10,715 nt of DNA from the IMG/VR virus record IMGVR_UViG_2636415418_000006, positions 1 through 10,715 of that record. One strand, 5' to 3'. The stretch comes from a virus. Lineage: Duplodnaviria; Heunggongvirae; Uroviricota; Caudoviricetes. Below are positions 3,478-10,715 of the stretch, piece after piece. Position numbers and translations under genes: made by a program. Positions within the stretch are counted from its first letter, which is position 1. Every line of letters starts with the position of its first letter. Below the pieces are notes generated by a model. That model worked only from the letters and a program-made list of their open reading frames with translations, made no database searches and was not told the DNA's origin.

Positions 3478-3562
3478 AGTCAGAGATAACAATCAACTAA
3501 TACTGTTTTGTTGATTTTTGCTTGTAATTGGCGTTCTGGCCTGATTTTTGTGGAGTAAGTTG

Positions 3563-3946
3563 ATGCGTGATATTCAGATGGTTCTTGAGCGTTGGGGAGC
3601 GTGGGCGGCTAATAATCATGAAGATGTGACCTGGTCGTCCATTGCCGCCGGTTTTAAGGGATTAATTACTTCAAAAGTAAAATCTCGCCCGCAATGTTGT
3701 GACGATGACGCGATGATTATTTGCGGGTGCATGGCCCGTCTGAAAAAGAACAACAGCGATTTGCACGATTTATTAGTAGATTATTATGTAGTCGGTATGA
3801 CATTCATGTCACTGGCAGGTAAGCATTGCTGCTCTGATGGTTATATCGGGAAAAGGTTACAGAAGGCTGAGGGCATAATTGAAGGGATGTTAATGGCATT
3901 AGATATCCGGTTAGAGATGGATATCGTTGTTAATAACTCTAATTAA
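3563..3946 (+). CDS. quuD: Late-gene antitermination protein Q homolog (127 aa)
   Basis: [34 protein letters not shown]...DIVVNNSN matches DLP12 QuuD as I recall it. A GGAG Shine-Dalgarno lies at 3552-3555. The ORF-track start at 3548 is an upstream TTG in the same frame. Confidence 0.88.
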
Positions 3947-3979
3947 TATGCCAGTTGTTTACTAAAAATTATTAAAAAT

Positions 3980-3997
3980 GGGGCGTTGCAACGCCCC
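3980..3997 (-). terminator. Perfect 18-bp palindrome GGGGCGTTGCAACGCCCC flanked by A/T runs; candidate terminator for nmpC (minus strand), possibly bidirectional
   Basis: The hairpin and its flanks are read directly from the sequence. On the minus strand the stem is followed by ATTTTTAAT. It lies about 140 nt downstream of the nmpC stop. Confidence 0.4.
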
Positions 3998-4085
3998 CAA
4001 AAATAAAGGGTAATATATAACAGAAGGTTTATATAGTTAGAAGCAAGGTTGTGCTCCTAAAGGAAGTGGCTTGAGGGAGCCACTT

Positions 4086-4125
4086 ATATGTTGGGGAGGC
4101 AAAGCCTCCCGCAACATATCTTTTT
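4086..4125 (+). terminator. Rho-independent terminator (about 15-bp stem with one bulge, then CTTTTT); candidate tR'-like terminator of the Q-dependent late leader
   Basis: ATATGTTGGGGAGGC-AAA-GCCTCCCGCAACATAT is followed by TTTTT at 4121-4125, about 180 nt downstream of the quuD stop. This matches the lambda Q / pR' / tR' layout. A second hairpin (AAGTGGCT/AGCCACTT) lies at 4064-4085. Confidence 0.55.
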
Positions 4126-4135
4126 CGTAATCAGA

Positions 4136-5233
4136 TTAGAACTGGTAAACCAGACCTACAGCAACGATGTCATCAGTGCTTACACCGAGTGCTTTAGTGA
4201 AGTCATTTTTGTCAAGCAGGTTGATTTTGTAATCAACGAAAGTAGACATATTTTTGTTGAAGTAATAGGTTGCACCTACATCAACATATTTGACTAAGTC
4301 CTGATCGCCCCATACTCCAAGATCCTTACCTTTAGATTGCAGGTAAGCAACGGACGGACGCAGACCGAAATCGAACTGATATTGTGCAACAGCTTCGAAG
4401 TTTTGAGCTTTATTAGCAACGAAGTGATCAGCAAATACAGTCATATTCTGGGTTTCAGAATAGGTAGTGGCCAGGTAAATGTTGTTAGCGTCATATTTCA
4501 GACCTGCGGCCCAAACTTCTGCATTTTTACCGGAAGCAAATACTTCAGGAAGAACTTTCCCTGCATTAACTTGAGTGTCGGTACGATCAGATTTCGCATA
4601 AGTTGCACCGATACCGAATCCTTCGTATTCATAGGTAGCAGAGAAACCGAAGCCATCACCGTTACCTTCGGTGTAGTTATCGAAATCGCTACGATCGTTT
4701 TTGCCTTGGTACTGAGCAGCAAAGTTCAGACCATCAACCAGACCAAAGAAGTCGTTGTTACGATAAGTTGCAACACCAGTGGTGCGACCAGTCATGAACA
4801 CATCTGTTTGGGTCCAGGTATCGCCACCGAATTCTGGCAGAACGTCAGTCCACGCACCGATGTCGTATGCTACACCGTAGTTACGGCCGTAATCGATGGA
4901 GCCGTAGTCACCGAATTTCAGGCCAGCGAAGGCAAGACGGGTTTTATCTTTGGAGGAACCTTGAGATTCAGCGCGGTTGCCTTTGAATTCATATTCCCAC
5001 TGACCGAAACCAGTCAGTTGATCGTTGATTTGGGTTTCACCTTTGAAGCCAAGACGGGCATAAGTAGTATCACCATCATCTGCATCATTAGAGGAGAAGT
5101 AGTGCTTAGCATTAACTTTCCCGTACAGATCCAGCTTGTTACTGTCTTTATTATAAATTTCAGCTGCCTGAGCAGACATCGCCATCAGTACTGATGCAGC
5201 TACAGCAGAAATTGCCACTGTTAATTTTTTCAT
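4136..5233 (-). CDS. nmpC: General outer-membrane porin of the OmpC/OmpF/NmpC family (365 aa, intact, with signal peptide)
   Basis: The signal peptide [23 protein letters not shown] is followed by AEIYNKD, and the protein ends in the typical porin C-terminal F. It is full length, unlike the IS5-disrupted K-12 nmpC, and sits antisense between Q and the lysis genes exactly as in DLP12. Confidence 0.85.
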
Positions 5234-5806
5234 CGTGAGCCCTTTTTTTTGAACTATTATTAAAAAATGATGTCACTGCGCGATAAATATTCATCTAATC
5301 AATATGATTATTTCAAGATGTAAGTTTTGGTTTCTCGTTTGATTTGTGAAGTAGATCTCTATTTTTATCTGAACTTTTTTCTATCGAATCCTATTCATGG
5401 CTCTTGGCTGAATAAAAATAAATCTATTAGCCAATTTATATTAACGGTTGTTATTTATAAGTGCTCTATGATTTGAAGGTTCAATTTAAATCGGCTAAAA
5501 ATAACACTGGGAATTATTTGTTGGTTATTTGTTGAGATTTGCTTATGTATTTGTAGTGGTGTTTTCAATACTCGGTAGCATTCTCGCAAATATCATTTAG
5601 TGGTTTACGTACGTAAAAAATTGGTTATGCTGTTAAGAGTGGTTACTTCGTCACACAGCTTAAACCCGCCGTCGAGTGGGTTTTTCCATTTTTTGAGTCT
5701 CGATATTAGCTGATAACCCAATACCTGAGTTATTCACTGACTCCGAGTCTGTTACGTTTCGTAGTATTCCCTCAATTTACACCCGCTTTGTCTGCGAGGT
5801 GGGGTT

Positions 5807-5905
5807 ATGAAATCCATGGATAAGTTAACAACGGGTGTCGCCTATGGCACCTCAGCAGGTAGTGCCGGGTATCTGCATCATCGTCTGCCTGTCATGGGCT
5901 GTTAA
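5807..5905 (+). pseudogene. essD: Class I holin (lambda S / EssD-like), N-terminal 22 codons only, then frameshifted into Rz sequence
   Basis: [22 protein letters not shown] matches the EssD/lambda S N-terminus as I recall it. After that the frame reads [10 protein letters not shown] and stops, because the DNA from about 5873 is Rz coding sequence in another frame. Confidence 0.7.
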
Positions 5906-6293
5906 TCATTACCGTGATAACGCAATCGCCTACAAAGAGCAGCGCGATAACAAGGCCAGTGAACTGGAGAAGGCGAACGCCACCATCGCTGACATGCGGA
6001 AGCGTCAACGTGATGTAGCAGAACTCGACGCAAGATACACAAAGGAGCTTGCTGATGCTAACGCGACTATCGAAAGTCTCCGTGCTGATGTTTCTGCTGG
6101 GCGTAAGCGCCTGCAAGTCGCCGCCACCTGTGCAAAGTCAACGACCGGAGCCAGCGGCATGGGCGATGGAGAAAGCCCAGGACTTACAGCAGATGCTGAA
6201 CTCAATTATTACCGTCTCCGAAGTGGAATCGACAAGATAACCGCGCAGGTTAACTACCTGCAGGAATACATCAGGACGCAATGCCTGAAATAA
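5844..6293 (+). CDS. rzpD: Inner-membrane spanin subunit Rz (i-spanin) with a chimeric N-terminus; transmembrane helix [11 protein letters not shown] retained
   Basis: From [26 protein letters not shown] to the C-terminal QCLK the protein aligns with lambda Rz as I recall it. The first ~12 codons (MAPQQVVPG) come from holin DNA read in the Rz frame. The start at ATG 5844 (or GTG 5835) is uncertain. Confidence 0.7.
6055..6240 (+). CDS. rzoD: Outer-membrane lipoprotein spanin Rz1 (o-spanin), embedded in the +1 frame of Rz
   Basis: An AAGGAG Shine-Dalgarno at 6041-6046 lies 8 nt before the ATG. The protein has a lipoprotein signal peptide with lipobox GVSAC, a proline-rich mature part ([14 protein letters not shown]) and lies wholly inside Rz. 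This is the classic embedded spanin arrangement. Confidence 0.75.
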
Positions 6294-6324
6294 TTTTTTT
6301 GCTAATCACAAAGTCCATTTAATG

Positions 6325-6349
6325 AGCCTCGCGATGCGGGGCTTTTTTT
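6325..6349 (+). terminator. Rho-independent terminator after Rz/Rz1 (8-bp stem AGCCTCGC/GCGGGGCT, loop GAT, seven T)
   Basis: Hairpin plus T-run are read directly, 32 nt downstream of the Rz stop. Confidence 0.6.
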
Positions 6350-6498
6350 ACATCTGAATTTCACAGCGCATCTCACGCGCATATTACATCACCCGAGCCT
6401 TTCAGAAAGTTGAGCCTGAGAACTGCCGTATATGGTGGCGACCATCTCGGGGCGGCTTTTCTGTGAGACAGGCTCACTTTCTAAAAGGTAAAGACGCT

Positions 6499-6987
6499 AT
6501 GAACCAATTAGAAGAAAAGCTTCAAAGAATGATTTCCTTATACAAGGAAGATAACTGCCAAAAAGTTCCTGAAAACATCGCAGAGTTAATGGAATTGGCA
6601 AGTGAATTTTCTGGCATGCTTAAGTCGTCAGGTGTTCGGTCAGCGTTCTTTGTTGAAATGCTGATGCACGGCGGACTTATGGCAACAATGAGACGTGTAA
6701 TGGAAGACCAGAGAAAAGAACCTCCTCAGGTATACGTTTTGTCATCGAAGAAAACTGGGCTAACCAAAATTGGGTATTCATCCAACATTCCACAACGCAT
6801 CAAATCGCTTGGCAACTCTGGACCAGACTGCTTGAAGCTTGAGTGCCTGATCCCTGGTGGAAGAGAAACTGAAAACATGCTTCATCGCAAATTTGCCGCA
6901 AAGAGAAAGCACGGTGAATGGTTCGCCCTGTCCAAGGATGACATTGAGGGATTGAAATCTGTAGCGATTACTTCTGATGGCTATTAA
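6499..6987 (+). CDS. T5orf172 (GIY-YIG-like) domain protein of 162 aa: helical N-terminal region of unknown function plus C-terminal T5orf172 domain; moron in the slot occupied by bor in lambda
   Basis: The C-terminal half (VYVLSSKKTGLTKIGYSSNIPQRIKSLGNSGPDCLKLECLIPGGRETENMLHRKFAAKRKHGEWFALS) follows the T5orf172/MUG113 pattern (hydrophobic-Y-V-L ... KIGyT ... R ... E ... LH ... GEWF). An AAGG Shine-Dalgarno precedes ATG 6499. The DNA is unrelated to lambda at this position. Confidence 0.7.
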   Translation: MNQLEEKLQRMISLYKEDNCQKVPENIAELMELASEFSGMLKSSGVRSAFFVEMLMHGGLMATMRRVMEDQRKEPPQVYVLSSKKTGLTKIGYSSNIPQRIKSLGNSGPDCLKLECLIPGGRETENMLHRKFAAKRKHGEWFALSKDDIEGLKSVAITSDGY

Positions 6988-7056: not shown

Positions 7057-7301
7057 AAACCGTGATTTACATCCCCACAATCCGGGTATGTAAAAGATAG
7101 TTCAGGCGAGAACGGATTTAACTAAATCTGTGCGCCACCAGTTAACGGCAGTACCACGAAACAACCCAAGCCAGTAAGTGGGGAAATAACACCGGCAGCC
7201 ACTGAAAGATGAACCTCCTGCCTTATGGCAAAAAAGATTCTTTGTGGTGGCGGACTGATGGAAAGACATCCTAATTTCAGCCAAACATTGAAGGAGTTGT
7301 T

Positions 7302-7373
7302 ATGTCAGCAGAAGGTTTCAATAACCCATCAAAATTCCGGGATGAGTGGGATAGCAGCGTAAAGAGTAAGTGA
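7302..7373 (+). CDS. Candidate small ORF (23 aa, MSAEGFNNPSKFRDEWDSSVKSK) with a strong Shine-Dalgarno
   Basis: A consensus AAGGAG at 7291-7296 lies 5 nt upstream of the ATG. There is no homology evidence, and the ORF is bracketed by the two repeated hairpins. Confidence 0.2.
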   Translation: MSAEGFNNPSKFRDEWDSSVKSK

Positions 7374-7383
7374 TGCCATCACA

Positions 7384-7417
7384 AAAGCCATTCCCTACAG
7401 AGTGGCTTTGATAATGG
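7384..7417 (+). repeat. Hairpin AAAGCCA-(12 nt)-TGGCTTT followed by GATAATGG; copy 2 of the repeated stem-loop motif
   Basis: It has the same architecture and the same 3' flank (GGCTT(T)GATAATG) as the hairpin at 7027-7056. Confidence 0.4.
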
Positions 7418-7665
7418 CTTATACCCTACACGGGATAACTTAACTGATATCCCTTTTAAAGGATAAAGGTATTCAAGCCTGACACATCATGCGCTGTATC
7501 GTCGCCGTATTCCAGTATTAACAGAGACCGTAGCCCGACGGGGAACTCCTTCTGCGCGAGTGTGCGGGAATAATCAAAAACGATGCACACCGGGGTTACC
7601 GGGTACACATATTTCATCATGCCAGCGAGTCCGGTTCTGGCACGGAAGAAACCGGACGTTATGAT

Positions 7666-8076
7666 TTAGTGCGGAAATATTTGTGTAGTGTTCTGAATGT
7701 TCTCAGTAAAGAGTAATGAATTATCAAAGGTATAGTAATACCTTTTGTTTTCGTGGATATTTGTAATCCATCTGAAAACCCCTGCTGTAGCAAGATTTTT
7801 CCTGTATTCGTAAAATGATAACTCTCCTGATTTGAATCCTTTTAATGTGGCTTCTATAAGGCATTTATTTTTTGAAAATCTTACATTTACAACCTTACCC
7901 TGTCCTTTTATTAAAACCGTATTATCGTTTTCAAGAACAAGATGAATATTCTCTGTGGCTAAATAGTAAATGTAATGTGAGACATTGTGACGTTTTAGTT
8001 CAGAATAAAACCAGTGATAGTTTAAATTATTTCGCACTTTATCGAATATTTGTTTAAAAATGGCAACCTGAGCCAT
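7666..8076 (-). CDS. ybcV: DUF1398-family prophage protein (YbcV-like, 136 aa)
   Basis: [17 protein letters not shown]...[24 protein letters not shown] resembles DLP12 YbcV and the equivalent lambda right-end ORF as I recall them. A GGAAGG Shine-Dalgarno precedes ATG 8076. The gene is AT-rich. Confidence 0.7.
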
Positions 8077-8755: not shown

Positions 8756-8944
8756 ATGGAAGTCAACAAAAAGCAGCTGGCTGACATTTTCGGTGCGAGT
8801 ATCCGTACCATTCAGAACTGGCAGGAACAGGGAATGCCCGTTCTGCGAGGCGGTGGCAAGGGTAATGAGGTGCTTTATGACTCTGCCGCCGTCATAAAAT
8901 GGTATGCCGAAATCTGGCGGATCCGGCGCGTGAGTTCACCATGA
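8756..8944 (+). pseudogene. nohD: Terminase small subunit Nu1, N-terminal 52 codons only (DNA-binding region), then junction
   Basis: MEVNKKQLADIFGASIRTIQNWQEQGMPVLRGGGKGNEVLYDSAAVIKWYAE is identical to lambda Nu1 residues 1-52. Homology stops at 8911, and the frame then reads IWRIRRVSSP and a stop. Confidence 0.85.
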
Positions 8945-9814: not shown

Positions 9815-10715
9815 AAGGGGGATGTATGGCCATAAAAGGTCTTGAGCAGGCCGTTGAAAACCTCAGCCGTATCAGCAGAACGGCGGTGCCCGGTGCCGCC
9901 GCAATGGCCATTATCCTCGGTGGTTTGTTCTCCTTGTCGCAGAGCGCCGTGTCCTCACCGGCTTCCGGGAAATCCACATCTTTTTTGATTTCGCCACGCC
10001 CGCCCACCATGGTGGCAAACTCCATTAATACCGGACCGGCGGGAAACAGAAGCGATGCGCCGGCGCTGACGAGATCCATAAAACCGGCATTGCTTTCCGT
10101 CAGGGTGATAACAGCGTTCCCCCAGGCCTTCGCCAGTGGTACTGCTTTTTCCGCTGCCGATTCAAGCAGGTCAGTGGCAATATCACCCCATGAGGGTTCC
10201 CCCTGTGGGATTTCAGGTATTGCTCCAGGTGGGGGAGGAGGGGGAAGGGTGACGGCGGCCCTTGCAGCGGGCTTTCCGTTAATGTTTACATTTTCAGAAC
10301 CGGTATTGATGGCGCCGTCCGTGTCACAAAAGCTGTTTATCCATGATTCAAGCTGGTTCTGTTTCTCCTCCACATAATCACTCGCCTTATAGCTGGCATA
10401 CATCAGCGCAGGCACCAGAACCAGCGCATAAGGGCCGGTGGCGCAGGCGGCCATAATCAGGCAACCTTCTGCGATGGTCACTATCGCCCCCAGCACGGCC
10501 CCTGCCAGTGCCCCCAGAAAACTTTTATGCTGAATTTCATCGCCCAGCCTGGCGGCAGGTGGGCCGGACTTCTTTGCTGCCAGCATCTGTGCAATGGCTT
10601 TGTCGTTGGCTGCCCGTTTCATCTGGCTGGCGACCATCGCCTGCTGTGACAGCATTCGCATTGCCAGCGTACCGCCTGCGGTCGCTCCCTGTGGCCCGCC
10701 TGGTCCTTCACTCAT
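9798..10715 (-). CDS. Hypothetical membrane protein with a prePAAR-like motif (AARLGDEIQH), a two-helix hydrophobic hairpin, a PAAR-like motif (NVNINGKPAAR) and a poly-proline linker; candidate T6SS-type effector N-terminal module whose 3' end runs into antisense lambda DNA
   Basis: The long minus-strand ORF is GC-rich with E. coli-like codon usage. Residues 51-60 fit AARxxDxxxH, residues about 66-108 are hydrophobic (FLGALAGAVLGAIVTIAEGCLIMAACATGPYALVLVPALMY), and residues about 141-149 are GSENVNINGKPAAR followed by PPPPPP. The last ~40 codons (position 9912 and below) are antisense to lambda Z and FII, so the native C-terminus is missing. The start may be an internal ATG (10584-10586, MLAAKKSGPPAAR...). 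Confidence 0.5.
   Translation of the reverse strand: MSEGPGGPQGATAGGTLAMRMLSQQAMVASQMKRAANDKAIAQMLAAKKSGPPAARLGDEIQHKSFLGALAGAVLGAIVTIAEGCLIMAACATGPYALVLVPALMYASYKASDYVEEKQNQLESWINSFCDTDGAINTGSENVNINGKPAARAAVTLPPPPPPGAIPEIPQGEPSWGDIATDLLESAAEKAVPLAKAWGNAVITLTESNAGFMDLVSAGASLLFPAGPVLMEFATMVGGRGEIKKDVDFPEAGEDTALCDKENKPPRIMAIAAAPGTAVLLIRLRFSTACSRPFMAIHPPFSGDG
9826..9912 (+). pseudogene. Tail protein Z, first 29 codons only
   Basis: MAIKGLEQAVENLSRISRTAVPGAAAMAI matches the lambda gpZ N-terminus, after which the frame diverges into sequence that is antisense to the minus-strand gene. The remaining ~150 aa of the ORF-track entry 9826..10377 are not Z. Confidence 0.75.

Follow-up and report, generated by a model that had tools for sequence, protein, structure and literature searches.

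The question raised by this locus is what became of the lysis genes of a decayed lambdoid prophage, in which the beginning of a holin gene is followed at once by spanin sequence, and whether anything that is left of them can still act. The window, that is the whole stretch of 10,715 nucleotides analyzed (IMG/VR record IMGVR_UViG_2636415418_000006), differs from E. coli strain W21 by one base. It spans fimZ, a tRNA-Arg gene (876-949), the sole match when the window was scanned with Rfam, and a DLP12-like lambdoid prophage in an advanced state of decay. This assignment is based on profile matches of an integrase fragment, RusA, Q and porin and on the RefSeq annotation of W21. The tRNA-Arg gene adjoins fimZ and is followed by integrase, rusA, ylcG, quuD, porin and essD, as in a DLP12-like prophage at argU, and the argU site next to fimZ is shared with DLP12 of E. 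coli K-12 (essD-ybcS/rrrD-rzpD/rzoD). The gene order of K-12 DLP12 and of lambdoid cassettes, which is Q antiterminator, porin, holin, endolysin and Rz/Rz1, is also recognizable, with quuD upstream, then the porin gene in reverse orientation and then what remains of the cassette (Table 1). The porin gene is intact in the window, which distinguishes it from the one in K-12, interrupted by IS5. Phages 434, PA-2, mEp332 and Kati have the 573-bp spacer between porin and holin (5234-5806) at 94-99% identity.

A first-pass annotation of the locus had proposed that one deletion of about 0.8 kb removed most of the holin, all of the endolysin and the first 12 or so codons of Rz, and had suggested that the breakpoint be placed by alignment to lambda or DLP12 and that sibling strains be compared. 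The breakpoint could be placed with strain HKUOPY1, which has window-like flanks at 99.7% identity and an intact cassette composed of essD (216 nt), rrrD (498 nt) and Rz (459 nt). The HKUOPY1 locus without its positions 7223-7903 (681 bp) is the same as the window over 660 bp, with a single mismatch at 6303 that lies downstream of the Rz stop, is non-coding and is unrelated to the deletion; in other words, over this region HKUOPY1 is the window plus exactly 681 bp. What is absent is essD codons 23-71, all 165 rrrD codons and Rz codons 1-12, and essD codon 22 is joined to Rz codon 13. At the level of sequence this reconstruction proves that a single deletion accounts for the loss of most of the holin, of the entire endolysin gene and of Rz up to codon 12, and as regards the deletion itself it is the proposed size that had to be corrected. 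The sequences at the two breakpoints (marked by a slash) are GCCGGGTA/CTGG in essD and CTCTGGTTA/TCTGC in Rz. Their microhomology consists of TA alone, situated inside GGGTA in essD and GGTTA in Rz, and the event can therefore be described as an illegitimate deletion with minimal homology. A longer direct repeat was considered as the breakpoint, but the candidate, CTGGTT, sits just inside both ends of the deletion and was not used by the junction.

Table 1. Positions of the lysis remnant, its signals and neighboring genes in the window.
Feature	Position	Strand	Remarks
quuD, Q-family late antiterminator, intact	3548-3946	+	PF06530, 178.8 bits, full length
Porin gene, intact, lc/nmpC type	4136-5233	-	365 aa; Porin_1 PF00267, 522 bits
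Terminator-like hairpin and T-run	5662-5683	+	essD starts about 125 nt further downstream
essD' pseudogene	5807-5905	+	22 true holin codons (5807-5872), 10 out-of-frame codons from Rz DNA, TAA 5903-5905
Deletion junction	5871-5872	+	681 bp absent relative to intact siblings; TA common to both breakpoints
Rz' i-spanin, N-terminally truncated	5844-6293	+	PF03245; 149 aa from ATG 5844; GTG 5835 as alternative start
Rz1 o-spanin	6042-6240	+	Shine-Dalgarno AAGGAG 6042-6047, ATG 6055, 61 codons, stop 6238-6240; PF06085
Terminator-like hairpin and T-run closing the lysis operon	6324-6354	+	hairpin 6324-6344; 30 nt after the Rz stop

The consequences for the reading frames are simple. Rz is read in the +1 frame with respect to essD, and because the length deleted, 681 = 3 x 227 bp, is a multiple of three, the junction is out of frame. 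Translation from the holin ATG continues past the junction for 10 codons in the wrong frame before it meets TAA, while the Rz frame is blocked by stop codons upstream of 5835. The statement that the 5' end of the holin runs into Rz is thus correct for the DNA, which is contiguous, and incorrect for the protein, since the two do not share a frame. An in-frame holin-Rz chimera, tried as a candidate product, is ruled out by the translation.

As for the holin itself, the DNA of the 5' part of essD is base for base the same as in intact siblings up to the junction, and its opening codons, ATG AAA TCC ATG, preserve the MKSM dual-start motif (Met1/Met4). The essD start has a Shine-Dalgarno pairing of -7.9 kcal/mol. 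The 22-codon holin peptide matches positions 1-19 of 64 of the Pfam profile PF04971, "Bacteriophage P21 holin S" (E=1.4e-5). Its score of 25.4 bits does not reach a full-length family match and is just below the gathering cut-off of 26, as expected because only a fragment is present; the intact 71-aa EssD of a sibling scores 121 bits over profile positions 1-63. The identity to essD of intact siblings and the match to PF04971 together confirm that 22 genuine holin codons begin at ATG 5807 and that this start does not belong to a coincidental open reading frame. They do not agree with the "lambda S" type given in the first-pass annotation: by its profile match the retained fragment is of the phage-21/EssD pinholin type, and the 22 residues kept, MKSM included, fit the N-terminus of the P21 holin profile as those of the phage 21 pinholin S21 do. 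The difference from the S21/R21 pair of phage 21 (PF04971, PF00959) is that here only these 19 of 64 profile positions are left, below the cut-off, and that the endolysin is absent. The predicted product of essD' is 32 aa long, of which 22 are holin-derived, and not the two-TMD product of about 70 aa (TMD1 and TMD2) of a complete pinholin. PGAP labels essD in strain W21 as "incomplete, missing C-terminus".

No endolysin had been recognized anywhere in the window at first, and this held in three respects. A tblastn search of the window with the sibling RrrD gave a best E value of 0.93, Pfam scans of 28 ORFs of the window detected no lysozyme, amidase or peptidase family, and no endolysin is annotated by RefSeq in strain W21, which is nearly identical to the window. 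The families that were detected in the 28 ORFs are FimZ, fragments of an integrase, an exonuclease (YqaJ) and a Dam methylase, NinE, NinX, RusA, the Q antiterminator, porin, GIY-YIG/T5orf172, DUF1398, DUF3950, a Nu1 fragment, FI, FII, a fragment of tail protein Z and a prePAAR/PAAR Rhs fragment. An endolysin hidden elsewhere in the window was accordingly rejected, with no muralytic family among the ORFs and no better tblastn match than the one mentioned. The RrrD of the intact sibling has a Gly/Ala-rich N-terminal segment of the kind typical of signal-anchor-release (SAR) endolysins, and with this SAR-like N-terminus it resembles R21, the SAR endolysin of phage 21.

Of the two spanin genes, Rz is the one that was hit by the deletion. 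Residues 13-152 of the sibling Rz align to 5871-6290 at 100% identity (tblastn), so that Rz' is identical to intact Rz from I13 on. It matches PF03245 with 135.2 bits over profile positions 1-125 of 126, which means that the periplasmic coiled-coil domain is complete as in lambda Rz, and the N-terminal sequence beyond the truncation also resembles that of lambda. What Rz' lacks compared with lambda Rz is residues 1-12, and with them the start codon, the ribosome-binding site and about half of the membrane anchor. As the deletion took the original ATG together with the Shine-Dalgarno site of Rz, the only starts available in the Rz frame are GTG 5835 and ATG 5844, both situated in essD-derived DNA within the essD' ORF. 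Their anti-Shine-Dalgarno pairing is -3.1 and -3.8 kcal/mol, respectively, in comparison with -8.4 kcal/mol for the native Rz start, and of the 20-mers sampled from the window 41% pair at -3 or better and 23% at -4 or better. A GGGTG element is found 6 nt upstream of ATG 5844, and low-level translation of Rz' may take place from there.

The anchor is affected as well. The N-terminal apolar run is reduced from 20 residues in intact Rz to 15 in Rz', Arg3 is lost, a Pro-Gly pair is now located inside the run, and the highest Kyte-Doolittle average over 19 residues is 1.60 in Rz' as against 2.63 in intact Rz. Over the 15 apolar residues alone the Kyte-Doolittle mean amounts to 2.48, and on this prediction the stretch could still insert into the membrane. 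In lambda Rz residues 1-24 form the transmembrane domain, a membrane anchor in type II topology, and the substitutions M1K, C14R and L19P each abolish lysis (PMC5295617). Taken together, these features suggest that Rz' is translated poorly if at all and that its membrane anchoring is doubtful; any Rz' made from ATG 5844 would probably be scarce and poorly anchored. PGAP nevertheless calls a CDS from ATG 5844, the 149-aa WP_023281832.1 named "lysis protein", and users of this annotation should be aware that the protein it describes is a shortened Rz whose N-terminus is artefactual.

Rz1, which lies within Rz in the +1 frame, is in a different state. Its sequence is the same as that of the intact sibling, it matches PF06085 with 72.5 bits, and it has a lipobox (V-S-A-C) with Cys20 and a proline-rich mature part; its Shine-Dalgarno AAGGAG is 7 nt ahead of the ATG, with a pairing of -7.9 kcal/mol. 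Every o-spanin feature that can be tested on sequence is thus present, lipidation being predicted. The embedded +1 frame, the lipobox Cys at position 20 and the proline-rich Rz1 are likewise features of the lambda Rz/Rz1 spanin (PF03245, PF06085; PMC5295617). The Rz1 described at first, with its own AAGGAG and a lipobox, is therefore correct, but the description of both Rz and Rz1 as complete applies to the full-length Rz1 only. The related suggestion, that a pair of spanins with a changed N-terminus might still be expressed, is weak: Rz' follows an out-of-frame junction and has the two poor starts, and only Rz1, of the pair, looks fully expressible from any transcript crossing it.

With regard to transcription, the hairpin that follows Rz has a 9-bp stem with 6 GC pairs and is followed by TTTTTACATC, and the one upstream of essD may be a tR' equivalent of the late operon, which would then be read through by QuuD. 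A scan of 3900-6600 for promoters detected none of the sigma-70 consensus type upstream of essD on the + strand, and the RNA fold of 5600-5700, the candidate late-leader/terminator region, was unremarkable (z = -0.51). Directly downstream of Rz a gene of a GIY-YIG / T5orf172 (MUG113) nuclease family is situated (6496-6984, + strand), at the place that is occupied by a bor/iss lipoprotein gene in the K-12-type cassettes of strains Res13-Lact-PEB01-20 and LR-46.

To what extent the deletion is shared can be seen from complete E. coli genomes. A 100-nt probe centered on the junction matched end to end in 8 of 5,426 of them, whose hosts are human, pig, chicken and frog. No genome other than these 8 covers at least 80% of the 10.7-kb window, and the 8 are at least 99.9% identical over the aligned 87-100%. 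This identity indicates that the junction is probably a single event inherited by one E. coli lineage; a recurrent origin of the exact junction was rejected on the same grounds, all 8 carriers having flanks that are at least 99.9% identical. The exact 149-aa Rz' product is found on 330 public contigs. The same flanks, at 95-99.7% identity, are present with the 681 bp in place in more than 100 complete genomes. Among lambdoid phages the intact type of cassette is known from ev099, in which it is 94.6% identical to that of the sibling, from PhiR49_1 and from the Stx phages 1717 and 2851. One carrier of the junction, the O9:H10 strain PEB20-37-A, still possesses exo-bet-gam-kil-cIII, ninB, dam and the tail genes Z and U, which means that the lysis deletion is older than the exo'/'dam and Z'/Rhs deletions of the window. 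The Rz/Rz1 coding sequence of the window shows no differences from the intact sibling beyond the deletion and no inactivating mutation, and the deletion must therefore be recent; for the same reason the intactness of these genes is uninformative about selection.

Compared with the DLP12-type cassette, the window has an identical essD 5' end and Rz and Rz1 of the same families, and differs in the 681 bp gone, which contained the holin transmembrane domains, the endolysin and the Rz start. The Rz/Rz1 allele is distinct from K-12 rzpD: in K-12-type genomes the match, at about 90%, does not go beyond the first 455 bases of the 751-base query. Other strains have lost parts of the same interval in different ways. 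In 19 complete genomes, Res13-Lact-PEB01-20 (locus 1100-1715) among them, a deletion of about 340 bp, a size taken from match spans, extends from the middle of rrrD (codon ~56) to just inside the beginning of Rz, leaving essD intact and the endolysin a pseudogene, and strain LR-46 has a variant of it that is about 10 bp shorter. In FG92-1 (NZ_CP142677.1, adjoining trkG; locus 885-1457) EssD(1-43) is fused in frame to Rz(8-end); the product of 190 aa, named "phage holin" by PGAP, would consist of the first transmembrane domain of the holin, after which come the anchor and the periplasmic domain of Rz. None of these breakpoints is like that of the window, where essD is destroyed too. As the breakpoints differ among strains, the deletions were independent events, and their comparison reveals at least four deletion alleles of separate origin in the holin-endolysin-Rz interval across E. 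coli. To judge by these alleles, the boundary between endolysin and Rz is repeatedly struck by deletion. In Shigella the DLP12 lysis module has reportedly been lost (PMC7918800).

In lysis of the phage 21 type the pinholin depolarizes the membrane, upon which the SAR endolysin is released and activated, and the spanin complex disrupts the outer membrane only once murein has been degraded. Since spanins come into play only when holin and endolysin have done their part, we infer that the locus is unable to lyse the cell, whatever Rz' and Rz1 do, and in this the original view that lysis is disarmed is supported by the loss of holin and endolysin in the HKUOPY1 reconstruction. It is highly probable, in our opinion, that the cassette was killed by the single 681-bp deletion and that the remnant is debris of neutral decay. 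According to this model, a cryptic DLP12-like lambdoid prophage at argU by fimZ holds a dead lysis cassette, in which one illegitimate deletion, with TA as the only microhomology, joined essD codon 22 to the DNA of Rz codon 13 and took away the membrane domains of the pinholin, all of rrrD and, from Rz, codons 1-12, start codon included, together with the ribosome-binding site. The well-initiated essD start yields only the 32-aa peptide, Rz is without its native start, and Rz1 is untouched, its lipoprotein possibly still being made from read-through transcripts, with no known role. The remnant would represent neutral debris, left by a recent decay of the prophage and passed on within a single lineage of E. 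coli.

Could the arrangement instead be an artefact of assembly or sequencing, or a natural alternative architecture of the cassette? Nothing specific favors either. Eight independently assembled complete genomes carry the junction base for base, the exact truncated protein recurs on the 330 contigs, and the 681 bp are present between the same flanks in more than 100 genomes, all of which speaks against these readings; their probability is close to nil. Equally negligible is the chance that the window gives rise to an in-frame holin-Rz chimeric membrane protein. Holin and Rz sequence do adjoin at the DNA level, and the fusion in FG92-1 demonstrates that a true in-frame junction of the two can arise in another strain, but in the window the essD frame ends after its 10 out-of-frame codons, stops ahead of 5835 block the Rz frame and on reading the sequence, with no dedicated search, no frameshift signal is apparent at the junction.

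A more serious alternative to neutral decay is that the remnant is a domesticated spanin module, in which Rz', with the new N-terminus MAPQQVVPG from ATG 5844, and Rz1 are expressed from a Q- or RpoE-controlled late transcript and kept for envelope maintenance, vesiculation or biofilm. The undamaged coding sequences of Rz' and Rz1 could be read in this way, as could the intact quuD, the preserved operon terminator, the 149-aa CDS called by PGAP and the persistence of the allele on 330 contigs. As noted above, however, identity to the intact siblings is a sign of a recent deletion and says nothing about selection; the Shine-Dalgarno pairing of the new starts is at background level and the starts themselves lie within the translated essD' ORF; and the anchor is halved and its N-terminal Arg gone. 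Spanins are not known to have any activity in the absence of an endolysin, which counts against domestication. That other strains lose the Rz start in different ways fits random decay. The lysis module of K-12 DLP12 is reportedly transcribed, under the control of Q, RpoE and Hha, and of influence on vesicle production and envelope phenotypes (PMC7918800), which favors a domesticated module, but an engineered K-12 essD-ybcS double mutant was near wild type in vesicle production (PMC7918800), which does not. On balance we regard domestication as unlikely. A still fainter prospect is that a "defused" cassette is kept for a host-beneficial envelope role of orphan Rz1, with or without weak Rz', such as vesiculation or outer-membrane stress signalling; if that were true, the recurrent deletions that remove the endolysin would reflect selection to disarm lysis while keeping the spanin genes. 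Nothing in the analysis supports a host role of the remnant.

Neutral decay of this sort is ordinary prophage decay, known in kind, and the essD pseudogene is already annotated by RefSeq/PGAP. No new mechanism is opened and the importance of the locus is small. Its value is that of a base-resolved case in which a cryptic prophage lost its killing function through one 681-bp deletion with minimal homology, and possibly that of a natural holin-and-endolysin-deleted allele for studies of the roles of DLP12 in the envelope and in vesicles.

Several other decay junctions are visible in the window. An integrase C-terminal fragment (968-1360) adjoins the exonuclease fragment (1398-1934), which in turn abuts a C-terminal fragment of Dam methylase (1958-2254); in the O9:H10 sibling the complete exo-bet-gam-kil-cIII, ninB and dam are still situated in between. 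Further downstream, a fragment of the terminase small subunit Nu1 (8756-8944, + strand), comprising the first 52 of 164 profile positions, is directly followed by FI and FII, and genes for the large terminase, the portal and the head are absent. In the last part of the window (approximately 9826-10715) a lambda-Z-like tail fragment, 27 residues of PF06763, meets a minus-strand prePAAR/PAAR Rhs fragment near 9925, beyond which DcrB-like and VgrG genes are situated in W21. This boundary between tail Z and Rhs is a deletion junction between prophage and T6SS island and is present in three of the eight genomes with the lysis deletion.
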